Source: an uncultured virus (IMG/VR IMGVR_UViG_3300037087_000757)
Lineage: Duplodnaviria; Heunggongvirae; Uroviricota; Caudoviricetes
Length of the DNA stretch: 64,000 nt
Virus record (IMG/VR): IMGVR_UViG_3300037087_000757
Strand: one strand, 5' to 3'
The notes below the pieces were generated by a model. That model saw only the letters and a program-made list of their open reading frames with translations, was not told where the DNA came from and made no database searches. Below are positions 3,101 through 62,121 of the stretch, in pieces. How positions within the stretch are numbered: the first letter of the stretch is position 1; each line of letters begins with the position of its first letter. A program made the translations under genes and the position numbers.

Positions 3101-4016
3101 CTTTTGATGTAATTCCATAAAGTTTTTTCTAGCTTTTGAATCTGTTAAAAGTTTAATAATTATATCCGTTGTAAAGAATGTGTTTAGTTCTCCATCTTCT
3201 AAATAAAAACATTCACAAGTACAATCATATCCATGAAATTTGTAAAATAACCATTCGGGATTTTCTTTCATCAAATTGGGTATATCCTTGTATATTGAAT
3301 TAGAAGAATACATCCATCTGAATTCTTCTAATTCATACTCATTTAATTGATATGATTTATCAAAATTATATCTCATCTTTTAATTCCTCTATTTTTTCAT
3401 TTAAAAGATCTCTTATCTGAATTGCCTCTTTTTTCGTGAATCCAATCCATTTGATGTTTTTTCCAAAGTCAAATATTATCAATTTACCATCCTGAACAGT
3501 AAGAGAAAATCTTATTTCTCCATCATCATTATCATTGAGTTTTCCATCTGGGAATTTTCCAGTTGCACCCAAAGATGATGAATTAAATTTTTCTATGAGT
3601 TCAGTTAATTCTTTCAATTTTTTAAATTGATCAATATCATTGAATGGTTTACTATTTCCATCTTCTGGTGCTTCAAATCCGTGATGTGACATAATATTGT
3701 TGTTATTTTTTAATAAGGATTTAACCTTATATTAACCTTATATTTAGGTGTTTAAAATATTTTCTATTTGTTCTTTTGTTAATTGACTTTCAAGTTGTTT
3801 CCTCAAATCTTGATATATTCTATCCATTTCAATTCTTCTGGGAGATCCCTCGGTATATGAATCAATAATAGCTTGATGGGCACAACCAATAACCCATCTG
3901 ACTATTTTAATCACACCAGCATCTGTTTTACCATATTCTTCCTCTACTCTATCGAAATTATTATCCTGACTGAATTCCAGAATAATCTTTTTACTCTTAT
4001 TAAATTTGTTCTTCAT
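109..4016 (-). other. Run of about 11 small, tightly packed hypothetical phage genes
   Basis: ORFs of 70-132 aa abut or overlap (ATGA, TAATG) on the minus strand; no recognisable domains; includes paralog pair 1690..2061 and 2274..2519. Confidence 0.8.
3727..3753 (-). promoter_or_regulatory. Class II promoter-like motif AAACAC-N15-ATATAA
   Basis: Same bipartite motif and 15-nt spacer as at 4036, 10255, 30470, 30652, 35134, 37571 and 63117; upstream of 3366..3692. Confidence 0.55.
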
Positions 4017-4095: not shown

Positions 4096-4416
4096 ATGAA
4101 ATACTTAAAATTATTCGAAGATTATAGTTCATTCGACCCATCTGGTATAAGTCCAGAACAAAGAAAAATTATATCAGACATCGTTAGAGATGGTTTTTTA
4201 GTTGCCTCTGAAAATTTCAGTGATGAATTGGAAAAAGGATTTGAAGTTCAACTTTCAACCTATGAAGGAGCTGTGGATGAAGAAACAATCGAAGAAAGAG
4301 AAGATAGTGAAAGAATTTTTAATGAATTAGCCGATAGAATCGGATCTGGTGAAAATGCTGGTATTATAGGTGCCGAACCCCTTAATTTTGAATGGGATAT
4401 AAGATGGGGTGTATAA
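4096..4416 (+). CDS. Putative internal head protein (CTS-like leader MKYLKLFE), acidic
   Basis: Leader motif; directly downstream of TAATATATA. Confidence 0.65.
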   Translation: MKYLKLFEDYSSFDPSGISPEQRKIISDIVRDGFLVASENFSDELEKGFEVQLSTYEGAVDEETIEEREDSERIFNELADRIGSGENAGIIGAEPLNFEWDIRWGV

Positions 4417-4432
4417 AAAATAAATTATAAAA

Positions 4433-4789
4433 ATGAAGAACATTAAAAAATTTCAAGATTTTATTAATGAAGATTCTATAAATGAATCTACCATTACAAA
4501 AATGTTTGGGGATAAAGAATATAAATTCACCGATACTCCAACCATGATAGGAGTGAAAATGTTACCGATTCCAGTTCAAGCTTTTGATTTTTTAAAAAAG
4601 GATCTCAATGATGAATCTAAAGTAGAGGAATTGGAGAATGGATGGGTTCGTTTAAAAGTTAAATCATATGGTGGTGAAGTTGTTTTATATTCACTCTCAA
4701 CAAAAGAGATGGTTTGTTTAGACCATCAACAGGGTGGAAGAATGGGAAGTGTTATGTGGGATTTTGTAAAAAATAATCCAATCGAATAA
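4433..4789 (+). CDS. Putative internal head protein (leader MKNIKKFQDFINE)
   Basis: Leader motif; second INE follows (DSINE). Confidence 0.65.
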   Translation: MKNIKKFQDFINEDSINESTITKMFGDKEYKFTDTPTMIGVKMLPIPVQAFDFLKKDLNDESKVEELENGWVRLKVKSYGGEVVLYSLSTKEMVCLDHQQGGRMGSVMWDFVKNNPIE

Positions 4790-4795
4790 ACTAAT

Positions 4796-5632
4796 ATGAT
4801 GACACATTTAAAATTATTTGAAGAATTTTATAATGAATCTATCACAAAAAGTGATCCAGAAAAGGATTATGAAAAAGTTCAAAAATATGATAAAAAAGAT
4901 CAATTAAAATGGTGTCAAATACTTTGGAATTATTATAATAAAACCCTATTTAAAAAAAAATTACCAAATGGAAATATCAGGTTCACTAAAAATATGGGAG
5001 ATAAGTTTAGTACAAGAGGGAATTATAGTCCAACAAAAAATGAAATTGGATTAAATGATCATTTATTTAATGCCACTTTTAATATTTTTAAAAGAACATT
5101 TCTTCATGAAATGTGTCATCAAGCAACCGCAAAAATTAGTGGTGAGGAAAAAGGAGGTCATGGTCCCACTTGGAGAAATTGGATGATGAAAGTTGGACTT
5201 ACTCCAAATGCTCTTGATATTGAAGCGAATGACACATATTTAAATGCTGATGAATTACAAAAAAAACAAATTAAAGATAAGTTAAAAGAAAAAGCCGTTG
5301 AAAAACAAACTCCGACATATCCATCAGAAAACAAATTTGCTAAATGGTTTAGTAAAGAAAATAATAAATGGAACTTGGGAATGATTCTCATACCAAATGA
5401 TCGAGCTGGTGAAAGATGGATATTTTTAAATATAGATGGATATGGAACAGCATATCAAATTGTTCCTTCAACTTGGTTTTTCGAGGTTTCACCTGAAGAA
5501 CTTAAATTATTAACTGATCGTAAACAAAATTTTGATGAAAGAGGTAGCAGAATAATTGAGTATAAAAATAAAAAAGATAGTCATAGAAGTGATATGAGAA
5601 GTCTAAAAAAATATTGGCGTTCTAATTTTTAA
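4796..5632 (+). CDS. SprT-like zinc metalloprotease with CTS-like leader
   Basis: TFLHEMCHQ (HExxH) plus GHGPTW, typical of the SprT family; leader MMTHLKLFEEFYNE. Confidence 0.8.
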   Translation: MMTHLKLFEEFYNESITKSDPEKDYEKVQKYDKKDQLKWCQILWNYYNKTLFKKKLPNGNIRFTKNMGDKFSTRGNYSPTKNEIGLNDHLFNATFNIFKRTFLHEMCHQATAKISGEEKGGHGPTWRNWMMKVGLTPNALDIEANDTYLNADELQKKQIKDKLKEKAVEKQTPTYPSENKFAKWFSKENNKWNLGMILIPNDRAGERWIFLNIDGYGTAYQIVPSTWFFEVSPEELKLLTDRKQNFDERGSRIIEYKNKKDSHRSDMRSLKKYWRSNF

Positions 5633-5635
5633 ATA

Positions 5636-6160
5636 ATGAGATTTATAAAAACATATGAAACATTTAACAATTCAACTTGTTATTATCGTTCTGAACCAAA
5701 ATTTCTTGGTGAATCATTTAAATTTGTTCCAGATGGATATTATGAAGCCATTGATGACAATAATGAGCCAAAACTTATATTCAATGAATACCGTGTTTCA
5801 AAAATACCAGAAGTATGTGCTTCAAAATATATAGGTGGATGCGTTATGGGTGGATTTTCAATGAATCATACGAGGGAATACTTTATATATGAAATTTGTG
5901 AAAAACCAGAGAAAGATATTTCACATTGGAGTAATGATGATTTTGAATATTTAGAAGAAGTTAGATATAGGCATACCGTTATCGGAAAATATATTGGTAA
6001 AGTAAAATTGACAGAATATCAAAAAAAATTATTTGAAATTTTTTATAAACATCTAAATTATCAATATGATGCTGGTGTAGATGAAGTATTTGATAAATAT
6101 TGGTCAGATATTGAAAATGGTAAATTAGACAAAGAACTGAAAAAAATTAAAGCGATATGA
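5636..6160 (+). CDS. CTS-leader protein, possible divergent ADP-ribosyltransferase fold
   Basis: Leader MRFIKTYETF; YYRS...VCAS...EEVRY arranged like R-S-E strands. Confidence 0.4.
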   Translation: MRFIKTYETFNNSTCYYRSEPKFLGESFKFVPDGYYEAIDDNNEPKLIFNEYRVSKIPEVCASKYIGGCVMGGFSMNHTREYFIYEICEKPEKDISHWSNDDFEYLEEVRYRHTVIGKYIGKVKLTEYQKKLFEIFYKHLNYQYDAGVDEVFDKYWSDIENGKLDKELKKIKAI

Positions 6161-6396
6161 AACACATAAAAGATTTTAAATTAAACGAAGATAAATCCAT
6201 TGACGGATTGAGACTTGAATCTATATTTTCAAATCTTACTGAAATAGATAATTTCAAAGAATCAATAGAATTTTTATCTTCTTTAAATCTCACAAAAGAA
6301 CAATATAATAAACTTGAAGAGATTATGAATAAATATGGCGAAGCTAGATATGATAGTGGATTTTCATCAGGTCTGGATTCAATGACAGAATTTTAA
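6157..6396 (+). CDS. Small CTS-leader protein (MKHIKDFKLNE)
   Basis: Leader nearly identical to that of 9230..9430. Confidence 0.6.
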   Translation: MKHIKDFKLNEDKSIDGLRLESIFSNLTEIDNFKESIEFLSSLNLTKEQYNKLEEIMNKYGEARYDSGFSSGLDSMTEF

Positions 6397-6411
6397 AATA
6401 AAAAATGATAT

Positions 6412-7311
6412 ATGAAGTATTTACAACTATTCGAAAATTTTAGTAAGGAAGATTTTAAAGTCTGGGATGAACTGTTTGGTATTCTCGATTGGAAATTCAA
6501 GTCAACCAAAAACGGTGATATGTCTTTAGATGGTGAATCTACCTATAACGAACTCAAAAATAAATTTCATTTAAAGAAATTTGAACAATATCTTGTTGAA
6601 TCGGTGGCTAAAGATCTGAAGGATTATATCGAAGATGAATATAAAGATGACTTAAAAGATGAATATGGTTTTTATGAAATAAAAGTCGATGATCCCGAAA
6701 AAATAAAAAAACAATTATTAAAAGATTTTGAATCTGGTATAATGAAAATAGATGTAAATGGAAAGAAATTGATAATTTTTAAGAATGATGCGAAATTTGA
6801 TTGTGTAATGTTATACGCAAATGTTGATAAGAAAATGTGGAAAGATATATTAGAACAAATTGATGAAGATGACCTTTACGAAGATCCTGAGGGTGTGGAA
6901 GAATATGGACTTGAAAAAGAACCTCATATAACGATAATATTTGGTATTCATTCAGATGAGAATGACCAAGAAAAAATAATGAAAAAATTAGAAGATTATA
7001 AACCGATTGAATTAAAAACTGGTGAAGTTGGTATGTTTGAAACTGATAAATACGATGTTATTAAGATAGATGTAAAACCAACAAAAGAATTATTAGCTTA
7101 TAGAAAAGATTTAATAGAAAATACAAAGAACACTCAAACCTATGATACATATACACCCCATATGACAATCGCTTATGTTAAAAAGGGCAAAGGAAATAAA
7201 TATATAAAGAAGATAAAGGTAGAAGAAATGGAATTGGAATTTGATACTATCAAATATTCTGATAGTAATTATAAGAAGAAAACAATTAAATTAACTCAGA
7301 ATAAAAAATAA
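6412..7311 (+). CDS. 2H phosphoesterase (T4 gp57B/Acb1-like) with N-terminal and internal CTS-like motifs
   Basis: Two HxT motifs (EPHITI, TPHMTIAY) preceded by CVMLY; leader MKYLQLFENF and internal HLKKFEQYLVE. Confidence 0.75.
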   Translation: MKYLQLFENFSKEDFKVWDELFGILDWKFKSTKNGDMSLDGESTYNELKNKFHLKKFEQYLVESVAKDLKDYIEDEYKDDLKDEYGFYEIKVDDPEKIKKQLLKDFESGIMKIDVNGKKLIIFKNDAKFDCVMLYANVDKKMWKDILEQIDEDDLYEDPEGVEEYGLEKEPHITIIFGIHSDENDQEKIMKKLEDYKPIELKTGEVGMFETDKYDVIKIDVKPTKELLAYRKDLIENTKNTQTYDTYTPHMTIAYVKKGKGNKYIKKIKVEEMELEFDTIKYSDSNYKKKTIKLTQNKK

Positions 7312-14976: not shown

Positions 14977-15492
14977 TTAAATGAAAATGGACAGTTTAGT
15001 TCTAAATTCAGGATTACTATAAATAACGAAAGTTATTTCTTTTACATGAACTGGTTGACTGTCGTTGAACATCTCCAAGGCTAATATAACCTCATCCAGA
15101 ACTTCATCCTCTGATTTTTCAACAACACCCAACATAACACCCATACGAATCGTTGGAAGTGTGACAGAACTAAGTTCTTGTTTTTCAGCCTCCATCAATC
15201 CACTGAGAATAATTTCATGTAATTTCTTGATTAAATTATCAATGACAAATATGACATTTTGAAATGAATTTTGTGGCTGAAATTGACCACGAATGAAAAA
15301 CGATTTCCCCTCTTGGAATTGATCCATTTGATTTGATAAATCCTGATGAAATTGATTTCCAGATGTTCGAACAATTACATTGTCAATTCCACCAAACCAT
15401 AATCCACTACCATTAATAGCGGTGATAAGAGCACCAGAGGGAACAGTAGATATATCACCAGAGATTACTTTAACATTTAAATTTCCTTTCAT
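14977..15492 (-). CDS. Macrodomain protein (ADP-ribose binding or hydrolase)
   Basis: VISGDIS...ALITAIN..GLWFGGID..I and SVTLPTIRMGV follow the macrodomain pattern, with degenerate N/G loop residues. Confidence 0.75.
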   Translation of the reverse strand: MKGNLNVKVISGDISTVPSGALITAINGSGLWFGGIDNVIVRTSGNQFHQDLSNQMDQFQEGKSFFIRGQFQPQNSFQNVIFVIDNLIKKLHEIILSGLMEAEKQELSSVTLPTIRMGVMLGVVEKSEDEVLDEVILALEMFNDSQPVHVKEITFVIYSNPEFRTKLSIFI

Positions 15493-19658: not shown

Positions 19659-20654
19659 TCATTCCATATATTTCCCCTCTGAATTTATTTTCGATAATTT
19701 ATGTTCGGAATTAAAAACTTCCACGATATCCACTGATTTTTGTCTTGGTCGAACTATTATTTCCATTTCCTGTGGAAGAACCGCTTCTCCTTCTAAAAAA
19801 TTATTATTTTTGGCCCAATTGGTATCCAAGAACAATTCGGATGATGGGAATGTATGTTTGAGTACAATACCTATTTCATTTGATTTCATATTTCTTGTAT
19901 CACCCCATCCTTTCTTTCCACTCGCGAACATTCTTGCCACTTTTAAATCCATTGTCCAACTTGGTTTGGAACATATAATTTTATCACCTACTTTTAAGTC
20001 CATGACACTTATAATTCCTCTATTTATTGTTTTGATTTCATTATTTGGTAGAAGTCCTACATTTGGATAATCCATATTAAAGTTCAATCCTCTATATAAG
20101 GTCATTTCATTAACATTAGTAATTAGTTCATTTTTCAGTCCAAGATATTTATTTAATTGTGTCCACCAACCGATTGTACCTCTTTGATATTTCAGCCACC
20201 ATTCTTTTATTTTATTATACTCTTCTTTGGAAAGGGTATACTGCATTTGATTTTTTGATTCTTCTTTGTACATTCTATCAAACAATTCCGTAGGTATTCT
20301 GGAAATGACAAATCCTTTCCATATGTCATTTATATCATATTTTTTCAACCAACTGTTGTCATAATCCAACCATTCTTCTCTTGTTTTGGGTGGATTGAAG
20401 AAGTCAATCAATTCTTTTTTTCCTTTTTCGGTTATTTTCCATTTGTTGTTGATGAAATCGCACAGACCTTCTTTTTTTAATAGTTTAACGGACTCTCCAA
20501 AGGTTATGCCCATTCTATCATCTTTCAACCAACTTTCTTCCATTCCATCAGTTCCGGGCCAATCATATATAAATAACATATACAACCAAGCCATTATTCT
20601 AACTCTGGTTTCTTCATCTTGGTCTGATTCGAATATTTTAAAACTTGTAATCAT
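19659..20654 (-). CDS. R-S-E type ADP-ribosyltransferase-like protein with CTS-like leader (start revised to 20654)
   Basis: MITSFKIFES leader; TLYRGL...PSWTMDLKVARMFA...QEMEIIV; TAATATATA at 20663-20671 (minus). Confidence 0.72.
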   Translation of the reverse strand: MITSFKIFESDQDEETRVRIMAWLYMLFIYDWPGTDGMEESWLKDDRMGITFGESVKLLKKEGLCDFINNKWKITEKGKKELIDFFNPPKTREEWLDYDNSWLKKYDINDIWKGFVISRIPTELFDRMYKEESKNQMQYTLSKEEYNKIKEWWLKYQRGTIGWWTQLNKYLGLKNELITNVNEMTLYRGLNFNMDYPNVGLLPNNEIKTINRGIISVMDLKVGDKIICSKPSWTMDLKVARMFASGKKGWGDTRNMKSNEIGIVLKHTFPSSELFLDTNWAKNNNFLEGEAVLPQEMEIIVRPRQKSVDIVEVFNSEHKLSKINSEGKYME

Positions 20655-20682
20655 ACAAAGGGTATATATTAAAACTTTAACA

Positions 20683-22362
20683 CTATACCCCATTATTGAG
20701 TTTAGGTTTTGGTAATTTAAATTTCTTTACGAAGTCTGGTTTTATATCAGTTCTTTCCCAGAACCACCAATTCCAAAAATCACTCCAATTTTTATTACTT
20801 CTGATTATATCATAATCTATTGTATGATATACCATTATATTTTCGGGTGGAATTGATTCGAGAGTATAAACACCATCTTCATTTACTGAGGCTGGATCAC
20901 GATATAATTGAATATCCTTGGTATTCACTTTCAAAATAACCCAATCTGTTTTATATTCCTTAACACCATAACCAATCATTAGATTTCTTTTATGATTGAA
21001 TAATTGTCGTGCTATTTGAGTAGCACCTTTCGTTGATTTTGATAAATAGATTGCGGTTGGCTCCCAATCACGATGGGTTGGTGGGTTTTGAGGTGTCAGA
21101 CCATGTTTTAATATGTCGTTTACATTTTTCAGTGGTGTTACATGAAAACAAGTGTTAATTTTAACGGGTTTAGATCCATATTTGAAATTCATTGTTTCAA
21201 CCCAAGAAAGTTCACCAAATTCTTCTGGTGTAATTTCTTTTTCGAATAAGTTAAAATTGGTTATCATATGTTCACTATACATGAGTTGTCTTTGTTGTAG
21301 GGTGAGTTTGGGTTTACTTACATTAATATTTCTCTTACCACTATACCATTCGATAGGAATGAATTTATGAATGGAAAATATTATATTACCCATTTTTATT
21401 TCTTTTTCTTTCGATTCAAATTTATCAAAATCGGGGTGGTCTAATTTCCATCCTTTCCCATTATTTCTTTTACTTATTTCGATAATATAATTATTATTCC
21501 ATATTTCGATTTTCAATTTATCTTCCAAATCATTTATAATTCTATCAAATTCATATTTTTTCGGAAAATCCCAAAATGAGATTACTTTATGTTTTGTCCA
21601 TATACGACCTTGATTTTTTATTTTAGAAAATTTAATTCCATAAATATCATCTTCAATTTTATAAAACATATCATTATGATTCCCAGATTTCTCACCTACA
21701 TATAATTCACCATCATAATATACAAAAGGAATAGCATCTGGGGATTCGTGTGTGATTTTTCTCCCATTAGGTAAATTAACAAAATCCCCCGATGATTCGA
21801 ATACTTTTTTTTCACTATACATGAGTTGTCTTTGTTGTAGGGTGAGTTTTGGTTTACTACCTGAGAAATTTCTACTATACCATTCGATAGGTATAAATTT
21901 GACAAAGGTGAAGTCATCTTCACTCCACGATATCACTTGTGTTTCAGGAACTTCTATTTTTTCATAATCGGGATGATTATATTCCCATTCTTTACCTTTT
22001 CCGTATTTAGACTTTTCAATTTCGATTTGATATTCTTGATGCCATATTTCTTTTTTCAATTTATCTTCTAAATCGTCTATAATCTTATTGAATTCATGTT
22101 TACTTGGATAATCCCAAAAGGATATTATTTTACTTTTTGTCCAAATACGACCACGATAGACGGTTTTTTTCCAAATATCAGCATATTCATCTCCTGTTTC
22201 TTCTTCAATTTTATCAATCATATCACCATGAGTAGAGGAATATTCACCAATATAAAAATCTCTCTTATAATAGAGAAAAGGTAAACTATCTGGATCTGAT
22301 TCGTTAATATATTTACCTGATGGTAATTTGATTGTATCTGATTGTGATTCGAATATTCTCAT
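20683..22362 (-). CDS. Three-module protein: two about 180-190 aa repeats plus a C-terminal His-type ART/Tpt1-like domain, each preceded by a CTS-like motif
   Basis: MRIFES / KKVFES / MITNFNLFE; both repeats end KPKLTLQQRQLMYSE; C-domain FHVT..NV..ILKHGL...AIYLS...VILKV...IPPENI. Confidence 0.7.
   Translation of the reverse strand: MRIFESQSDTIKLPSGKYINESDPDSLPFLYYKRDFYIGEYSSTHGDMIDKIEEETGDEYADIWKKTVYRGRIWTKSKIISFWDYPSKHEFNKIIDDLEDKLKKEIWHQEYQIEIEKSKYGKGKEWEYNHPDYEKIEVPETQVISWSEDDFTFVKFIPIEWYSRNFSGSKPKLTLQQRQLMYSEKKVFESSGDFVNLPNGRKITHESPDAIPFVYYDGELYVGEKSGNHNDMFYKIEDDIYGIKFSKIKNQGRIWTKHKVISFWDFPKKYEFDRIINDLEDKLKIEIWNNNYIIEISKRNNGKGWKLDHPDFDKFESKEKEIKMGNIIFSIHKFIPIEWYSGKRNINVSKPKLTLQQRQLMYSEHMITNFNLFEKEITPEEFGELSWVETMNFKYGSKPVKINTCFHVTPLKNVNDILKHGLTPQNPPTHRDWEPTAIYLSKSTKGATQIARQLFNHKRNLMIGYGVKEYKTDWVILKVNTKDIQLYRDPASVNEDGVYTLESIPPENIMVYHTIDYDIIRSNKNWSDFWNWWFWERTDIKPDFVKKFKLPKPKLNNGV
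21271..21849. repeat. 39-bp exact direct repeat, 540 bp apart, at module junctions
   Basis: TTCACTATACATGAGTTGTCTTTGTTGTAGGGTGAGTTT at 21271 and 21811. Confidence 0.95.
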
Positions 22363-25867: not shown

Positions 25868-26353
25868 ATGATAAAAAGTTTTAGAATCTTCGAATCAAAT
25901 AAAGGTCTTGAATCCTTTACTGTCTATCATGGTTCAAATGAAGAACATGATTTTTCAGAAACAGGTAAACATTATCAACTTGGTGGAACTTTCTTTTCAG
26001 AAGATAAAAATGAAGCTAAATCACATGGTAAATTCCTCTATGAAATCCAGCTTAAACCTACTATTGACTTATTTAGTACTATCAATCTATCTGATTGTGA
26101 AAAACTAATAAAACATTGCGAAATCTTATATGATGATTATTTTGATGAAGATGTCGATCCAGATAACTATTTTATAAAAACACCAGAACAACTATCCAAC
26201 CATACCGATAACTGGAACGCTATCGAAAAAACTCCCGGTGTACTGGATTGGTTACATCATTATGACGGTGCTATAATTACTGAAGGTGGTTGTTTAAACA
26301 TTCTTATATTCGACCCCGTAATGGAAAAAATACAATCATATAAACTATTATAA
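25868..26353 (+). CDS. His-type ADP-ribosyltransferase-like (ART-PolyVal-like) protein with CTS-like leader
   Basis: MIKSFRIFES; VYHGS...GTFFSEDKNEA..HG...LYEIQL...YDGAII; TAATATATA at 25851. Confidence 0.7.
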   Translation: MIKSFRIFESNKGLESFTVYHGSNEEHDFSETGKHYQLGGTFFSEDKNEAKSHGKFLYEIQLKPTIDLFSTINLSDCEKLIKHCEILYDDYFDEDVDPDNYFIKTPEQLSNHTDNWNAIEKTPGVLDWLHHYDGAIITEGGCLNILIFDPVMEKIQSYKLL

Positions 26354-26418: not shown

Positions 26419-27867
26419 TTAGATTTTTAATCCATTTACTGAATTCAATTCCGTCACTATTTCCTTTACCCTGCGTAAATACCTCAATCGTTCAATAGTG
26501 GTGAATACTTCGATTAACCTCAATTTGAAATCATTAAAGTTATCATATCCGAATTCCACAGCCATCTGCGTGTTAAACTCCTTCTTCTTATCCCAATCAT
26601 ACCTCTTTATGGTGAAATTCGTTTTCAAATTTAACTTCTTTGTGAAATATTGTACATATAAAGTAGATGTCGGTAAATAATCATTTACATGCTTCCTGAC
26701 ATTACTATTCCCTTCTTCCATTCCCTTTACTAACTTATATACATCATTTATCCTTTTTACCAATTCTTGTTTCTTACCATCCAATATCGTTGTATGTTCT
26801 ACAACATTAAAATCCTTAAATAATTCCTTTAACTCACCCATATGTTTATCTACCATTTTTACCATATCATCATATTTCCCCATAACTTCTTTTAAGGATT
26901 CTACATTATACTCGTAATAACTACGGATCTTCTCACTGATATCAATATCCTGAACTAATTCCTTAATCCCCTTATCTAAAGTGATATACCTATCATATTT
27001 GTTTACATCCTCATCGAAAAATGTCTTTACATCTATCTCACCCTGCTTATTGTACATCTTTACTATTCGACACACATATTCCCCCTTATCCATTATAACT
27101 TCATTTTCATCTCCATGTTTAAAGAATCCTATCTCCCCCTCCAATAAATCAAAATCTATTACTATATCCTTCGGTTTGGCCATAATAGATATAATTACTC
27201 CCAATTCTCCATCTATATACCTATCATTCCTCGATAACCAGTTTAAAGTCGCGGTAAATGTACTGGTTTGTTCACTGAAACGTGCAAAACCCTCAGCTAT
27301 CTTCTTACTATGAGTCCATGAAGATACTTTGTCAAATTCCATATTCAAAATATCCGTTCCTTGCTTTATACAATTAAGAAACTTCTGTCCATACGCCATC
27401 TCCCCTTTGTAAGTTTTCTCCAAGTGATACTTGTTGAATAATAAACCACGATATAAGACAATAGGATTCTTGGGTCTAAGTGACGATATTCGCTTTACTT
27501 CCTCAACGGTTTCTCTACTCAAACTTCTGTGTTTATAAGAATTGACGAAATTTAATACTGTTCTATTCACCTGTTTGTTAAACTCACTAATTAACTTCTT
27601 TATATCATCTATTATCCACTGTTTTTCAATATAATCCTGTAACTTCTTACTTCTTAGGTTCTTAAAATCATAGCTATCCTTGAAAAAATCCATTACTTGT
27701 TGATTGTTGAAAAAATAATATTTTAAGGTATCCACGAAATTTTTATTCAAAGTAGGATTTTCTATCTTACTGAATAATGGTTTCAATACATCTTGCTTCT
27801 TCATATTCTTTATCACATCCTCTTTGGGAAGATTTGAAGCTTCAAATAAAGTAAATCTGGTTATCAT
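26419..27867 (-). CDS. R-S-E type ADP-ribosyltransferase-like protein with CTS-like leader and helical C-terminus
   Basis: MITRFTLFEA; VLYRGL...VSSWTHSKKIAEGFA...DENEVIM; TAATATATA at 27874-27882 (minus). Confidence 0.75.
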   Translation of the reverse strand: MITRFTLFEASNLPKEDVIKNMKKQDVLKPLFSKIENPTLNKNFVDTLKYYFFNNQQVMDFFKDSYDFKNLRSKKLQDYIEKQWIIDDIKKLISEFNKQVNRTVLNFVNSYKHRSLSRETVEEVKRISSLRPKNPIVLYRGLLFNKYHLEKTYKGEMAYGQKFLNCIKQGTDILNMEFDKVSSWTHSKKIAEGFARFSEQTSTFTATLNWLSRNDRYIDGELGVIISIMAKPKDIVIDFDLLEGEIGFFKHGDENEVIMDKGEYVCRIVKMYNKQGEIDVKTFFDEDVNKYDRYITLDKGIKELVQDIDISEKIRSYYEYNVESLKEVMGKYDDMVKMVDKHMGELKELFKDFNVVEHTTILDGKKQELVKRINDVYKLVKGMEEGNSNVRKHVNDYLPTSTLYVQYFTKKLNLKTNFTIKRYDWDKKKEFNTQMAVEFGYDNFNDFKLRLIEVFTTIERLRYLRRVKEIVTELNSVNGLKI

Positions 27868-28289: not shown

Positions 28290-28339
28290 TATACATATAT
28301 CATATAACTCATTATAAATCAATAACATATAATCAATAA

Positions 28340-28600
28340 TTTCCTGCAGAAAAAATAGCTTGCCGCGCTGCCCAAAAAAATTTTGAGCGCTAAAAAAAGG
28401 TAGGTTCCGCGGCGCCCCAAAAAAAATTTAGCTATAAAAAAGTGGGGAAAATTTCTGCCCCAAAAAAATTTTCCTCAGAAAAAATTCCTGCCGCGCCTGC
28501 AAAAATTTCTCGGTCATGGGCTATGAGCCGCGCCACCCCCTATGGGGGCTGCGCAGCGGCAGCGGCGCTGGATCATGAGCCCGGACCGGAGGGTCATGGT
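28340..28600. other. GC-rich non-coding island: about 43-bp degenerate A-tract repeats plus branched hairpin; candidate origin or packaging/terminus site
   Basis: GC blocks alternating with A5-A8 tracts; inverted repeat 28509-28591; located at the skew and gene-orientation switch. Confidence 0.6.
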
Positions 28601-28679
28601 TAGTCGAATTTAGATCCCTTGAGGATTGGATATAAAGCTCTTGACCATTTGGAAATACGAAATGAAAATTTAATATATA

Positions 28680-30017
28680 ATGCCTATGTATTATTCAACT
28701 CCAGTAATGAATGCTATAGAGAATACGCCGGGGGCTCGTGTCCTTGACGGTGGGAGAATAGAGTTACAGGTATCGAGATATCAGAAGCCAGAACAGGGTG
28801 GGAGTCCTTCAGTTCGTACAGGTGTATTCTATTTACCTGAACTTAAATCCCCGTATGGTAAACATTATAAATCTTCTTATGACAATCCTAACTCCGCTTA
28901 TGGTGGTAGTCAATATATAACTGGTACGATTGTATTGAAGAAACCATATACATTACAAGCAGGTACAGGTGGGTTAGGTCCACAGAAAGCCTTTATAGAG
29001 TTATATGGTAAAGATATGTATAAGGAACTTGAATCAGATATATTCGAGATGGTAGTAAATAGAATGCCTTGGGGTAAGAAGGTGAACCATATGGTAATGG
29101 AAGAGTGGATACAAGAGTTCATGGAGAAGTGGGAAGGTGATCCAGATTTGGCGTATGCTATAGCTGAACATAGTAACGAGGGTAATCGTATGAGATACGC
29201 GTTACAAGAACATATCATAGCACATAAGATCAGAGATAAAGGATTTGATAGTGTACTATCTTATAGTAAACATAAGGGAGAGTTCCACCTGTCAGAAGTG
29301 TTTGACCTAAGACAGATGGAGTATCCATACGAGAGTGGATTCCTAATAGAACAACACCATAACAAATTATATAACAATATCATAACAACATTCAATAGCT
29401 TTATATCTTATATGAATGAATCATATATAAAGCCGAGTGGAGGACTTATATATTTGACACAGGATATAACTTATGCGAATGCATATGCTATGGGTATGAA
29501 GAGTACAGCACATAAAGGGGTAGAACATATAAGGGATGGGGTTATATTTGTTATATGGTTAGACGAGAACATAGCTCATTGGGGAGGGGATATATGGGAG
29601 AACTGTTACAGGGCGGAAGTCGTAGAGGATTTAAAAGAATATAAGCGATCTGGTAGGTTATCTACTTTACTATCTATTATGTTTGAATCAGCGGGAATAG
29701 GATCGGATATAAATCAGTCGAATATAAAGTACTTGAATAATATGATAAAAGATCCTATTATATTACTTCAATGTATATCACCTAATGATTGGTCGGGTAT
29801 ACAAGATGGGGGGATGGGATATAGTGAAGTATGTGTAAAGAGTGTAGAGTGGAATCAGATTATAGAGATTCGTGTATATAAGGACTATGAATTGGTGGAT
29901 ACTATACAAGGTGGTATGGTGGATATAGATTTGATGGAAATTGAACCAGAGGATTACATGAATATATTTTATCATGGATCACCTTTACATTTATGGCAGT
30001 CTAAGTTATTACGATAG
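28680..30017 (+). CDS. Two-domain ART-like protein with internal CTS-like motif; second domain apparently circularly permuted
   Basis: Domain 1 GVFYL...YG...KGFDSV; linker NIITTFNSFISYMNE; domain 2 YIKP..LIYLTQDITYANAYA...SEVCV with C-terminal IFYHGS; TAATATATA at 28671. Confidence 0.6.
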   Translation: MPMYYSTPVMNAIENTPGARVLDGGRIELQVSRYQKPEQGGSPSVRTGVFYLPELKSPYGKHYKSSYDNPNSAYGGSQYITGTIVLKKPYTLQAGTGGLGPQKAFIELYGKDMYKELESDIFEMVVNRMPWGKKVNHMVMEEWIQEFMEKWEGDPDLAYAIAEHSNEGNRMRYALQEHIIAHKIRDKGFDSVLSYSKHKGEFHLSEVFDLRQMEYPYESGFLIEQHHNKLYNNIITTFNSFISYMNESYIKPSGGLIYLTQDITYANAYAMGMKSTAHKGVEHIRDGVIFVIWLDENIAHWGGDIWENCYRAEVVEDLKEYKRSGRLSTLLSIMFESAGIGSDINQSNIKYLNNMIKDPIILLQCISPNDWSGIQDGGMGYSEVCVKSVEWNQIIEIRVYKDYELVDTIQGGMVDIDLMEIEPEDYMNIFYHGSPLHLWQSKLLR

Positions 30018-30456
30018 GAGTGTTTATTCTCATCTTCACTTTAATTATATAACCATCTGCAATATAATCATTCCAGAGTTCATACCATTCATAATCACTA
30101 TTAATGATAGTTAGGTTTAGTTCTTTAGCTATTTGAGTCATTCTTTCGGACAGGAACATTTGTAATACCTTTTCTTTACTTCTACCTTTATATTGTCGTT
30201 GGTGATAGATCGCTTGCCAACATTCCTTGACCCAACCTTCCCAATATATTAAATGGTTATTACCTATATTTTGTACAAAGGTTTGCCATTCATATCCATC
30301 TCCAGTGTTGTCTAATATTTCATAGGGTTCAGGTCTCCAATCGTTATGATCTGGATCTGTTTTAAGATGATCAAGGTATTCTTGAATGATAGCGATGCGT
30401 TGTTCATCAGCTATATTGATTTCCGTGTAATCTTCAAATAATGTAAACATATGCAT
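30001..30456 (-). CDS. CTS-leader protein (MHMFTLFED)
   Basis: Leader; (TA)n run with TAATATATA directly upstream. Confidence 0.6.
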   Translation of the reverse strand: MHMFTLFEDYTEINIADEQRIAIIQEYLDHLKTDPDHNDWRPEPYEILDNTGDGYEWQTFVQNIGNNHLIYWEGWVKECWQAIYHQRQYKGRSKEKVLQMFLSERMTQIAKELNLTIINSDYEWYELWNDYIADGYIIKVKMRINTPIVIT

Positions 30457-35980: not shown

Positions 35981-37507
35981 CTATTGAAGATTGTTTTTAG
36001 ATTCTATCTTAGTAATTATAGCGAGTACATCATGGGTAACGATTATATCTTTACGGTTGGGTAGTTTATTGATACAATCTATACATATTTTATCACCTTT
36101 ATAATCTTGAATACTGATATTAAACAGGTAGGCGTCGTAATACACCGAAACTGGTTTCTGACAGTAGTTACATTTAACATGGGTTAGGTTGAACCACCAA
36201 GTTTTAAATTTAAATTTTAATTTATAATTCATCCACATATACTATAATTATATTATATTATTTTATTGTGTCACCTACTTTATATTTTCTCACCAGTTCA
36301 TAGGTAAAATTACAAGAGGGGAATTGGATTAATTTTCCAGTATTATCTTTAACGATGAATACAGGATCTGCTATAATATCACCTTGTTGGGATGTAAAAA
36401 CGACAGCTGGTTTTTTCAGGTTGTTGAATTTTTCTAATCCTGATTCATATTCATTACAGGAAATCATCATGAACATAAGTAAGAATAGGGTTAAGATAAT
36501 TTTTTTCATATATTGATAATTTTATTTTATTTGGTCAATAAGATAATTAAAGATACTATGTTTACCATTTACCCCTATATCCAAAAATAGAATAAATATC
36601 GGTATGATGGTAACGATGCACCAGAATAGGATAAAAAAGGCTACAAAACTTCTCATATTATAAATAATGTAAGTGTTATTACTATAGCTACACCACTGAA
36701 TACAGCAGTCCAGAATTTCCAATCACCTTCTTCTAATCCAATGAGAAGATGTTTAGCTAATGCTTTATCGTAATTTTTCATGTTTATTAAGTTATTTTTT
36801 TAAGATAATCCATTATAGATTCGATAATTTGTTTATCATTTATTCTATGGTCAGGATGTCTTTCATTCCAAGATATTTGAAAATCTCTTACTTTCAATAT
36901 TTTTTGAATATCATTTTTTATATTAGTTATTAACAGTTTGTAGGTCGAGGTTATAATTCACTTTAACTGTATTTTGTGGTACATGGAGTCTATATGTTCC
37001 ATCTCTATATGTACCCGTTGAAATATGTTCGAACAGTACCCAATTTTTTATTTTACTTATGTCTAATACTTCATAATAGTATTCAACCAAATAAGGTTCA
37101 GTATTTTCATCTTCATATATAATGGTTTCGTAGTCATTAGTTTTGTAAAGTTTTTTACCACCTTCTTCTGCTTTATACATAATGTATTGGATATTATTTG
37201 AAGATCCGAATCCACCTATACCGAGGATAAATGATCCGCTTATTTGTTTATCATTTTGTAGGTTCAGTGAATATATCTTTTCTTTCAGGGGTGTTTTACT
37301 AACAAGTCGTGGTTCAAGGGTACTGTTTAATATAGCGGTTGTGATTGCCCAAAAAATCAGGGATATTAATATCCCGTATGTAAGCCATCCGCTAGCGACA
37401 TCTTCGATGGAGTCCCATACTGATTGATTAGAATTATTTCTTCTGATAAGAAAAGCTATTACCAATGAGATGATAAACAGTCCGATAAAAATGAATAGTG
37501 TGTACAT
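35981..37507 (-). other. Small genes including lipoprotein 36258..36509 and membrane protein 36923..37507
   Basis: MISC lipobox; class I promoter motif at 37532-37563 supports start at 37507. Confidence 0.7.
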
Positions 37508-39676
37508 AATTTTGTTTTTTATGATTTTGAATAAATATAAGTAATTGTTCTGGAATAAAAAAATATATTCAAACAAAGGGGTGTATTTTTTATATAAATA
37601 GAGTGTGAATTGTTTATCAATAGATATAAAAAAAGATTAAGGATGGAATTAGAAGAGATGAAAAAATTAGGTTATTCTATTGAATTTCCTATGTTGGAGA
37701 AGATAGAGGATTTAATATATTACGAAGGACCGCTTTTATCTCTATTTAAGAGGAAAGATGAAGATATATTCTATTTCTATTATTGGATAGATATGGATAA
37801 GACTTCTAATAGGTGGTTAATTTTTGAAGTATCTCAGGATGATATAACTAATTTTAAGGAGAAAAATGACACCATCATTTTAAAGGATTTGATTTTAAAA
37901 TCGAATAATTTATGGATTGATGATATTTCTGATGGTTTGGATGATTTAAATGATTTAAATCATGATTTTAGATATGTAGAAAAGAAAGAAATTATTAATT
38001 ATTTAAAATATAAGGTATGAAAAAGGTCAAGTTAATTAAGTTATTTGAAGCTGAAAATCCTCGTCATCCTAATAATATTCCAGAGGGTTTTGTTAAAGAG
38101 GGATATCCAATAAATGAACCAACGGTAGGTGAATCATTTCTTATGAATACTGATGATGGGGATGGATGGCACACTTCGATTGTTCAGGAAATATTTGAGG
38201 ATGGTACATTCAAGACTTTTAATTCTATTTATAAAATTGTAAGAGAATGAGATACATAGCTAAAATAGATAGAAGAATAAAAGCGAGCATGAATGGTAAT
38301 TGGATACTTCACTCATATGGTACTACAAAAAAGAGACCAAGAATTAAAAAAATAATTCGAACTGATACTAAAATCATTCTCGAAACAACATAAAAACAAT
38401 GAGTCCAGAGAAAAGAGGGATTAAAGTAGAACATTTTCCTATGTGGATACAATTGTCTAATCCACATTTAAATGATATTTTAAATCAAGATGGATACTTA
38501 TGTCTTAATAATTTGACAAAACAAGTTTATGTAATGCCATACAAAAGGAATAAAATAAATCAATAGAATATGGTAAAACCGATTAAACCGAATGAGGTTG
38601 TTAGTATTAAACTGGATAATATTCCAGATGAATTGATTGAAGCGATTAATGAATTAATCGTTAAGAAGTGGGACGGATATTCCGCTGTAGTACTTCAAGA
38701 AGATATTGAAAAGCTATTTCTTAAAAAATATCCGAATGTAAAGGAAGCTAAAAAGAAGATGTACGAAGAACACTGGATGGATTTCGAGGATATTTTTCGT
38801 AAAGAGGGTTGGTCTGTTAAGTTTGATAAGCCCGGCTACGATGAATCTTATGATGCTTATTTCGAATTCAAGCCAAAAAAGAATAAAGAAGGTTTCGAAG
38901 CAAAGGACTAATTATTTTTTAATTTTTAGAGTGTAGTTATTTTTTTATTTCGGATATTTTACTTATATTCATTTCAATTGTAAAATGACTTTATATGAAA
39001 ACACAAGAAGTAATAAAGTGGGAATCTGGTGCAGATTATTCAACAAAAACAATTGAACTATTAACTAAGAAGTTAACGGAATTGATTGGAGAGGGATATA
39101 CTATTGATAATGTTATACCAACAGAATATTACGGGAGTAATATCGCGTGTATAACCAGAGCACTTATCATTGTAAGTATATAGAAAGGGAAATAGTTATG
39201 ATGATATTTAGTGGATGTGTATTATTATTTCTCATTATAGTGATTATATTTTTTGGATCAAAAGGTTTGAGATAAATATGAAGCCTATATTCATGTTCAA
39301 AATTTATTAAAAGATAAAACGAATACTACTTATTATATCAATGAATATAAACAAATAGAAGATTAAAAATGATAACAAGAGAACAAATAGAAAACGCCCT
39401 TACTGATGATAGGGATAGTGTTTTCAAACAAGACGAGGATCATGGAATGAAGGTGGTCACACTTTTAAGAAATAAAATACCGTATTCCGAATGTCATAGT
39501 ATACTTGTCGGGGCATCACACGATCAAATATATCTACCTGATATTGGTATGATTATTAAGTATATTGATGAGAGTGATTTGTCAGTTCTTGTGGATTGTA
39601 ATTCGTTTATTGACGAAGATAATGATTGTCTTTCATTATATGTTTAATATGTTTAATTTTAGTAAGAAGTAAGTGT

Positions 39677-40198
39677 ATGAATCAATCGATTGATAACGAA
39701 AGTCAAATATTTTTTTACGAACAGAATTATTATCCATTTTCCAATTTTTCATCTTTTCAAGTGAATTGGAAAGGGTATCAATGGATGACCTCTGAACATG
39801 CTTATCATTCGGAAAAGTTTATTAATCATCCTGAGATCATAGAATTATTAAAACAAACGACATCAGCACATGATGCGTTTAAAATCGCTATGAAGAATAA
39901 GGATAAGTATCTTGAAAATTGGGATGATATTAAACTTGGCATCATGGAACAAATACTTTTAGCTAAAGTGGAACAACATCCATATGTCAGGAAGAAATTA
40001 TTTGATAGTGGAGATAAAGAATTAATTGAAAATTCATGGAGAGATTCATATTGGGGATGGGGTGAAAACAAAGATGGTGAAAATCATCTGGGTAAATTGT
40101 GGATGAAAATCAGAACAGATTTAAGATCAGATATGAGATTTAATACAAAAAATGAATTTCCTCCCGTTTCAATTTATCATGATTTTAATCAAGTATAA
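39677..40198 (+). CDS. NADAR (YbiA-like) family protein (start revised to 39677)
   Basis: FSNF, TSEHAYHSEKF, WDDIKL.IM..IL.AK..QHP, LIENS..DSYWG, GENHLGKLWMKIR. Confidence 0.9.
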   Translation: MNQSIDNESQIFFYEQNYYPFSNFSSFQVNWKGYQWMTSEHAYHSEKFINHPEIIELLKQTTSAHDAFKIAMKNKDKYLENWDDIKLGIMEQILLAKVEQHPYVRKKLFDSGDKELIENSWRDSYWGWGENKDGENHLGKLWMKIRTDLRSDMRFNTKNEFPPVSIYHDFNQV

Positions 40199-61374: not shown

Positions 61375-62121
61375 TTATAAAATTTTTTCAGCATAATCGA
61401 AAAAATTTGAACCGTCTGGATTTAATTTTGGATTATTTCTTTTATCAAATTTATAAGCTTCTTTGAAATATAATTTACCATAGTTGGATATTGAAGTTCC
61501 ACATTTCATTATTTCAATTTTCCAATAATCAGAGAGGTATTTATTTAATTTCTTACCTATATCCGCGAAATCTGAGTAATTATCAGAGTCACTACATTTT
61601 TTGTATTGTAAAGGTGTTAAAATATTTTTACATTCATCGAGAAATCTTTTTATTTTATTTTCATTCCAGTTATTATATAAGTAAGAAATAGGTTCATTAG
61701 ATAGATAATTATCTAATATAAAATTCATTTTATCCTTGACTATTTTTGTACCATAATTAATAAATTGACCAACATAATCTTCATCTGGCATAACATCGGT
61801 AAATCTATTTTCATCAATAATAAATAAATATCCAAATTCACCAGCTTCCAGTAGAGGTTCAACATCCATTGAATATCCAACCATATTGGCACCAAGAATA
61901 TAAATAATAGATTCCTTTAAATTAGGAGTACAGTAAGTTCTCCCGACATCCGGTGTAATTTTACCGCCTTTTTTATCATTTTGATTCCCCGGTTTTAAAT
62001 AACCATCTTTCATTATTTTTTCACCTAATGTCGTAACGGAACATCCATGATAATAGGTAAACTTTATAGAAACAGTTTCAAAAAGTTTATAATTGGTAAT
62101 TAAGTATTTATTTTCATTCAT
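61375..62121 (-). CDS. His-type ART-like protein with CTS-like leader
   Basis: YLITNYKLFE; YYHGCS...IMKDGYLKP...TYCTPNLKESIIY...GYLFII; TTATATATA at 62156-62164 (minus); lone counter-oriented gene in the arm. Confidence 0.6.
   Translation of the reverse strand: MNENKYLITNYKLFETVSIKFTYYHGCSVTTLGEKIMKDGYLKPGNQNDKKGGKITPDVGRTYCTPNLKESIIYILGANMVGYSMDVEPLLEAGEFGYLFIIDENRFTDVMPDEDYVGQFINYGTKIVKDKMNFILDNYLSNEPISYLYNNWNENKIKRFLDECKNILTPLQYKKCSDSDNYSDFADIGKKLNKYLSDYWKIEIMKCGTSISNYGKLYFKEAYKFDKRNNPKLNPDGSNFFDYAEKIL

Follow-up and report, generated by a model that had tools for sequence, protein, structure and literature searches.

A probable circular permutation of the H-Y-E ADP-ribosyltransferase fold encoded by very large phages

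The Gene and Its Family

The gene described here lies on a 64,000-nucleotide stretch of DNA (hereafter, the window) from an uncultured virus of the class Caudoviricetes (IMG/VR record IMGVR_UViG_3300037087_000757). Its open reading frame (ORF), 28680..30017 on the forward strand, translates to 445 amino acids, and joins a conserved N-terminal module to a rear domain that probably has the ADP-ribosyltransferase (ART) fold of the H-Y-E type in a circularly permuted order (Table 1). A leader-like stretch, NIITTFNSFISYMNE, separates the two and is directly followed by SYIKPSGGLIYLTQDITYANAYA; the rear domain opens with SYIKP..IYLT..YANAYA, and the protein ends in IFYHGSPLHLWQSKLLR (pattern IFYHGSPL..W..LLR, then the stop), with TAG at positions 30015-30017 of the DNA, which was checked. 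The window is AT-rich and phage-like, with a guanine-cytosine (GC) content of 30% (0.301). Recoding of TAG, which would extend this ORF, was considered and rejected: with TAG read as sense, the ORFs that span 150 codons or more grow in total from 9,964 to just 10,549 codons, and because the ORFs of the window are so little lengthened, the TAG is taken as a real stop.

An exhaustive search of 1.84 billion proteins with residues 233-445 recovered a small family, comprised of 19 representatives at E ≤ 1e-3. The same protein as that of the window (P0001, starting at the second Met) occurs on seven contigs, the longest of which is 736,551 bases, and related genes were found on viral contigs of 675,678, 362,763, and 13,431 bases. 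The rear ∼200 residues also occur independently: P0011 and P0025 begin with them, P0028 has them in its middle part, and P0012 and P0029 end with them; stand-alone relatives (209-225 residues) are the commonest form, accounting for at least 12 of 24 members at ∼210 residues. At E ≤ 1, Pfam has no model that matches any of the 21 aligned members, the family has no NCBIfam or PHROG match, and its profile found no PDB sequence. A tblastn search of 50,697 phage records was without a match, and direct BLASTP of the ORF against the other ART-like genes of the window gave nothing significant. Residues ∼248-445 are likely to represent a small, unannotated family of H-Y-E-type ART-fold domains from very large phages.

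Motif Order and Conservation

Conservation was examined in an alignment of 21 sequences of the rear-domain family (alignment A1, in the numbering of a 231-residue piece, to which 214 is added for the ORF numbering). No variation occurs at Y44, A52, Y55, A56, G58, D90, E169, G219, or P221, or in the GGD motif that includes D90, and conservation reaches at least 90% at Y217, H218, and S220, with Ser replacing His in one sequence. The residue set of ARTs, i.e., a His followed by Gly, two Tyr residues, and an acidic residue on a strand, is therefore present (H218 at ≥90%; G219, Y44, Y55, and E169 invariant), with the second invariant Tyr 11 residues after the Tyr of the Y-x-T strand. Glu383 (E169) is the candidate catalytic Glu.

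The order of these motifs is not that of canonical ARTs, in which the His lies on the first strand, ahead of the Tyr strand. A motif scan that included three viral loci found the order Y-x-T, GYSE, YHGSP in all 24 full members (a count that leaves out two fragments, P0044 and P0048, and two doubtful hits, P0046 and P0047), so that the His follows the Glu strand in every one of them. The proteins stop 4-17 residues past YHGSP in 16 of the 24, and the other eight are internal domains of longer proteins. The original prediction, made for this one gene, that the YHGS strand and the helix after it stand at the extreme C-terminus is borne out by these counts and by the A1 invariants. Judged from the sequences, the motif order of the ORF is a family trait and lies beyond chance. 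A hidden canonical strand 1 upstream of the Tyr strand (KLYNNIITT, with Asn for His) was considered and rejected: this segment aligns with the leaders of stand-alone relatives, shows no conservation, and is modeled as a helix of low confidence.

Comparison With a Canonical-Order Relative

A relative with the canonical order is encoded in the same window, at 61375..62121. As predicted, it reads YYHGCS, then GYLKP, then TYCTPNLKESIIYILG, and an alignment of 13 sequences was built around it (alignment A2, an unnamed family). Comparison by hhalign links A1 to A2 significantly (E = 5e-5) over strand 2, helix 2, and strand 3, where the partner of the IYLT..YANAYA segment in A2 is TYCTP..IIYILG. In the next-best local alignment, the C-terminal IFYHGSPL of A1 lies opposite YYHGT at the N-terminus of A2 (E = 0.012).

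The columns of A1 were also permuted, at 13 cut points, such that the C-terminal end precedes the N-terminal start. At all 13 cut points, this rotation increased the score against A2 from 33.8 to 46.4-47.5 and improved the E-value from 3.3e-4 to 2-3e-6 (2.4e-6), while the aligned columns rose from 43 to 58-108, ran collinearly, and started at the His strand of A2. The controls did not reach these values: scores were 33.7 for the core alone, 33.9 for a reversed block, 33.5-34.7 for ten shuffled blocks, and 33.0-38.9 when 11 other blocks were moved to the front. With the leader removed, 17 residues lie between the His and the KP-loop Lys across the junction, compared with 18 in the canonical ORF. 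At the sequence level, joining the C-terminal end to the N-terminal start thus restores the canonical order, as had been proposed, and the re-permuted profile outscores the native one (∼47 vs. 33.8, with controls at 33.0-38.9).

The two families have in common the strand 2/helix 2/strand 3 block, a Tyr-x10-Tyr spacing, an acidic motif that follows strand 3, an extensive helical insert (one comparable to that of 29586..29816 is present in the A2 model), phage origin, and an N-terminal leader. They differ in that the YYHG strand and helix 1 are N-terminal in A2 and C-terminal in A1, and in that the strand-5 Glu is variable in A2, whereas it is invariant in A1. On this profile evidence, A1 is related to A2, yet is a distinct family with another order.

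Predicted Structure

AlphaFold returned a confident single domain for A1 (predicted local distance difference test, pLDDT, 82.5; predicted template modeling score, pTM, 0.77), the last segment of which is a strand, in keeping with the earlier expectation. The model runs through a strand (43-46), a helix (49-56), a strand (72-79), a helical insert (89-165), and strands 170-172, 180-187, and 190-196, followed by a low-confidence linker (block 201-210, mean pLDDT 66) and by a final strand (215-220) and helix (226-229), with mean pLDDT of 91 for block 211-220 and 85 for block 221-230. The strand 43-46 and helix 49-56 are predicted at pLDDT >90, and the upstream leader is of low confidence.

In a VIA search of 48,161 chains, ARTs made up 12-13 of the best 25 rows for the A1 model, and the non-ART rows span only the helical insertion (29586..29816). 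ART-fold proteins predominate among its structural neighbors, in agreement with membership in the H-Y-E ART clade, and the A2 model is likewise surrounded by ART-fold chains. The ART rows share 8-17% sequence identity in the structural alignments. For all 13 chains listed for both models, the A1 alignment begins 13-76 target residues later than the A2 alignment (target start for A1 vs. A2: EcPltA, 17 vs. 1; pertussis S1, 21 vs. 1; LT, 17 vs. 4; TreX, 22 vs. 9). Such later starts are what a sequential aligner must give if the A1 domain is without an N-terminal strand 1 and helix 1. The best BFVD row, which serves as a lead only, is Gp610 of Bacillus phage G (215 residues, E = 0.038, TM-score 0.30). 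Because A1 and A2 have no detectable link to ART-PolyVal, the assignment to the ARTs rests on modest structural scores, the enrichment of ARTs among the neighbors, the motifs, and the gene context.

A Circularly Permuted ART and Its Alternatives

We consider that the rear domain is probably an H-Y-E ART with a genuine circular permutation that is conserved in its family. The unit with which the ART fold begins, a beta-alpha unit of strand 1 with the NAD-binding His-Gly-Ser together with helix 1, would have been shifted to the C-terminal end, and the chain would run from strand 2 (Tyr258) and helix 2 (Tyr269) through strand 3, the helical insert, the Glu383 strand, and a hairpin to strand 1 (His432) and helix 1, with the last strand presumably occupying the strand-1 position. 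By analogy with T4 Alt and the ARTs of polyvalent proteins, the domain may bind NAD+ and, early in infection, ADP-ribosylate a target of the host or of a rival.

The suggestion of a natural circular permutation is supported in part. The conserved order, the pairing of the C-terminal end with YYHGT, the gain upon rotation, and the ART-rich neighbors speak for it, and several observations speak for one or another of the alternatives discussed below: the VIA Z-score for the A1 model does not exceed 4.2; Foldseek with the same model was negative; the profiles of known ART families give no match, and hhalign of A1 or A2 against an eight-sequence ART-PolyVal alignment is not significant (for A1, E = 0.022 native and 0.0035 rotated); the likeness of the C-terminal block to the canonical strand 1 is a motif of ∼6-15 residues, with E = 0.012 on its own; the C-terminal element is terminal and follows a low-confidence linker (pLDDT 66); and the family is frequent in multi-ART polyproteins.

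The alternative that best survives, although it is improbable, is an ART-derived core that lost strand 1, in which the YHGSP strand is convergent or unrelated, packs elsewhere, and makes no true circular permutation. The shortness of the motif fits such a history. That motif, however, is the exact His-Gly-Ser signature and is conserved as strongly as the Tyr and Glu positions, the joined termini are collinear with A2 at near-canonical spacing (17 vs. 18 residues), and the rotation controls gave no gain. An H-Y-E pocket without any His strand would, moreover, miss a core NAD contact.

More improbable again is a domain swap, in which the C-terminal strand and helix act in trans, completing the core of a second subunit or of a different ART-like module, and the monomer is an incomplete ART until assembly or processing. 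The terminal position of the element behind its linker and the frequent polyproteins would suit this arrangement, but AlphaFold places the element as a confident strand inside a single-chain model, and the commonest form of the family is a stand-alone protein. Least probable of all, and very unlikely, is that the domain is no ART and has a structural role or another enzymatic activity, its fold likeness and motifs being coincidental; the absent profile matches and low structural scores point that way, whereas the share of ARTs among the best VIA rows, the significant profile homology to A2 (whose model has ART neighbors), the H, Y, Y, and E positions, all invariant or nearly so, and the location of the gene among ART-PolyVal, Macro, and NADAR genes point the other.

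The N-Terminal Module

The N-terminal module is visible in 9 of the 15 homologous sequences inspected. Among 29 homolog matches of the whole ORF, 23 are without the motifs of the C-terminal domain and hence align through the N-terminal module. Elsewhere, this module is fused to ADPrib_exo_Tox (P0013), ART-PolyVal (P0017), and SLT (P0026). It has no Pfam or NCBIfam match and no hhalign link to ART-PolyVal or A2. Its Atlas neighbors are RES, ART-PolyVal, and AcrIF11, a lead only, and one with which a weak match in a PDB profile search (CMP-NeuAc synthetase, 1qwj_A, E = 6.6e-4) conflicts. The GC content is 0.389 in this part of the gene vs. 0.301 in the window. With this separate module, the ORF would be a two-module effector.

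Upstream of the ORF, the intergenic region 28290-28680 contains three to four copies of a repeat, spaced ∼44 nt from one another, in which a GC-rich core precedes A7-8 T3-4. Its GC content reaches 56% in the 30% GC window, its fold z-score is only −1.4, and no Rfam family was found for it.

The Leader and Its Possible Cleavage

The stand-alone members, the ART-PolyVal gene of the window, and the homologs of the latter carry M-I-[TK]-x-F-x-[IL]-F-E, or a motif close to it, at the N-terminus. A sixth match to the leader expression in the window, beyond those in Table 1, is an 81-residue ORF (37182-37427) and was judged doubtful. The internal NIITTFNSFIS of ORF 28680..30017 aligns with the leaders of the stand-alone relatives (M-I-T-x-F-x-[IL]-F-E); it is without the [IL]-F-E signature and reads ..SFISYMNE, with the nearest Glu in YMNE. 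From this alignment, the ORF looks as though a stand-alone gene with its leader had been fused behind another module. The linker would be the relic of an N-terminal leader that, in the relatives, resembles a capsid-targeting, protease-cleaved propeptide.

The T4 protease follows an [IL]-x-Glu rule, and the leaders described here end in [IL]-F-E. A search of two relative phage genomes found a Peptidase_S77 (gp21-like) protease in one of them, at 67.5 bits, and no match in the second. The available passages of PMC9026906 and PMC3012670 state that the diverse internal proteins of T4 have in common only a 10-residue capsid targeting sequence, of which residues 4 and 7 serve mainly for targeting and residues 8 and 10 for processing. 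According to these passages, a short N-terminal leader, which the prohead protease removes, is all that the diverse T4 effectors have in common; the leaders described here may be of a similar kind. In ORF 28680..30017, the leader is internal and degenerate. Continued cleavage of the linker is possible but somewhat doubtful. The original prediction had the N-terminus of the permuted domain created by cleavage after the leader Glu, a step that is unnecessary for the permutation because stand-alone members of ∼210 residues exist.

In another phage clade, relatives use I-I-N-E-E-I-E-N-L-like leaders and linkers instead. On the 675-kb phage contig (L001), two genes that flank the family member, 3348-3926 (+) and 5417-6178 (+), have similar leaders (MKYIKLFEEYN and MRYLKTFEKFS); one of these flanking genes contains RGEG ... 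GLYLTDD..A..Y, which is reminiscent of an ART, and has no Pfam match.

Genomic Neighborhood and Origin

The Macro gene, the NADAR gene, the 2′-5′ RNA ligase/Acb1-like gene, and at least four ART-like genes in one window look like a dense toolkit of ADP-ribose writers and erasers (Table 1). The homologs P0062 and P0063 of the ART-PolyVal/AcrIF11-like gene both match PF18760, and only P0062 (40.4 bits) passes the 31.2-bit cut-off, P0063 scoring 30.9. The leader-bearing ORF 26419-27867 (−; 482 residues) contains LYRG, SSWTHS, and ENEV motifs, an order that we presume to be similar to that of R-S-E (Alt/VIP2-type) ARTs, and has no Pfam, PHROG, or NCBIfam match. On the 13-kb contig (L002), a gene beside the family member (4301-7045, −; 914 residues) appears by eye to carry an intein-like/homing-endonuclease insertion, and the neighboring ORF 2060-2590 encodes Peptidase_M15_3.

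Table 1. Features of ORF 28680..30017 and of the surrounding window.
Feature	Residues	Position	Strand	Remarks
Whole ORF	445 aa	28680..30017	+	Conserved N-terminal module fused to a probably permuted ART-like domain
N-terminal module	∼1-220	28680..29339	+	Separate conserved family (alignment A4)
Leader-like linker NIITTFNSFISYMNE	233-247	29376-29420	+	Aligns with N-terminal leaders of stand-alone relatives; low-confidence helix in model, pLDDT ∼46-54
Strand and helix, IYLT..YANAYA.G	257-272	29448..29495	+	Putative ART strand 2 and helix 2; Tyr258, Tyr269; invariant Y44, A52, Y55, A56, G58
GGD[IV]W motif	302-306	29583..29597	+	Invariant Asp304; position matches invariant PDEDxVG of A2
Helical insertion, strand 3 to Glu strand	303-379	29586..29816	+	Model helices 89-165
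GYSEVCV strand	380-386	29817..29837	+	Putative ART strand 5; invariant Y167, E169 (Glu383); model strand 170-172
C-terminal strand and short helix IFYHGSPLHLWQSKLLR	429-445	29964..30014	+	Putative ART strand 1 and helix 1; His432, Gly433
Canonical-order relative (family A2)	248 aa	61375..62121	−	ART-fold protein; YYHG at strand 1
ART-PolyVal/AcrIF11-like gene		25868..26353	+	Same N-terminal leader; PF18760 E = 3e-4, NCBIfam AcrIF11 E = 4.4e-5, both below cut-off
Macro gene		14980-15492	−	
NADAR gene		39626-40195	+	
2′-5′ RNA ligase/Acb1-like gene		6412-7308	+	
Leader-bearing ORF		19659-20693	−	Motif scan; leader at internal Met
Leader-bearing ORF		25868-26353	+	Motif scan
Leader-bearing ORF		26419-27867	−	Motif scan
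Leader-bearing ORF		30001-30456	−	Motif scan
Leader-bearing ORF		61375-62121	−	Motif scan

Tandem domains are a classical route to circular permutation, as argued for a permuted macrodomain in the passages of PMC5087659 that were available, and by analogy the permuted ART may have taken the same route, arising in tandem-ART polyproteins through a shifted domain boundary. The polyprotein P0032 has the permuted domain followed by a PARP-like domain and then ART-PolyVal, and at another locus (L003) the family gene is flanked by two ART-PolyVal genes. Two relative genomes have one copy each of the permuted family vs. seven and two ART-PolyVal matches. An unlikely scenario is that the permuted order is a by-product of effector building: in tandem ARTs with leader-like, protease-cut linkers, the cut or ORF boundary would have shifted by one beta-alpha unit, giving a new unit that begins with the core and ends with strand 1 and helix 1. 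Where the domain is fused, as in this ORF, the enzyme could then be a zymogen, in which the His strand completes the NAD pocket only after cleavage at the internal leader or ejection, i.e., an injection-timed ART, with a target new to the superfamily.

Relation to Known Systems

Like the permuted family, ART-PolyVal/Tox-ART-HYD2 (PF18760) comprises phage effectors and occurs in multi-ART polyproteins and in adjacent genes, and it has an active site of the H/Y/acidic type (PMC5512222, in the part available). It differs in that its His lies in the N-terminal strand 1 and its strand 5 usually carries Asp, whereas the permuted family has Glu, and no Pfam match or significant hhalign link connects the two. 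The H-Y-E ARTs with solved structures (PARPs, the diphtheria-toxin group, DarT, Tpt1/KptA, and Arr) have the same constellation of His-Gly-Ser, Tyr, Tyr, and Glu and are among the neighbors of the A2 model and, less strongly, among those of the A1 model; in all of them, however, strand 1 comes first, and they share 8-17% identity with the permuted domain. The permuted macrodomain of Dictyostelium APL is also a natural circular permutation in an ADP-ribose system, ascribed to tandem domains in the available passages of PMC5087659, but it has another fold (a macro reader/eraser, and no transferase) and belongs to another lineage.

Within the literature covered on circular permutation together with ADP-ribosyltransferases or the ART fold, with subscription journals lying outside that coverage, we found no description of a permuted ART in titles, opening lines of abstracts, and the passages available, texts from the Aravind group among them. 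This includes passages of PMC9503650, PMC5087659, PMC7824862, and PMC3482391; PMC5512222 and PMC12522546 do not contain the string "permut".

Implications

In phage-host and toxin biology, ARTs are weapons of central importance, and a leading His strand is regarded as a fixed feature of their fold. The known set of probable injected effectors of megaphages would gain two ART-like families without annotation (A1 and A2), together with a leader signal that is shared. If the permutation is true, it would explain the escape of the family from every ART profile, which would suggest that annotation is overlooking other permuted members. It would also provide a natural test of which connections of the ART fold are dispensable, and the tandem-ART polyproteins of very large phages would be a place where new domain topologies arise.
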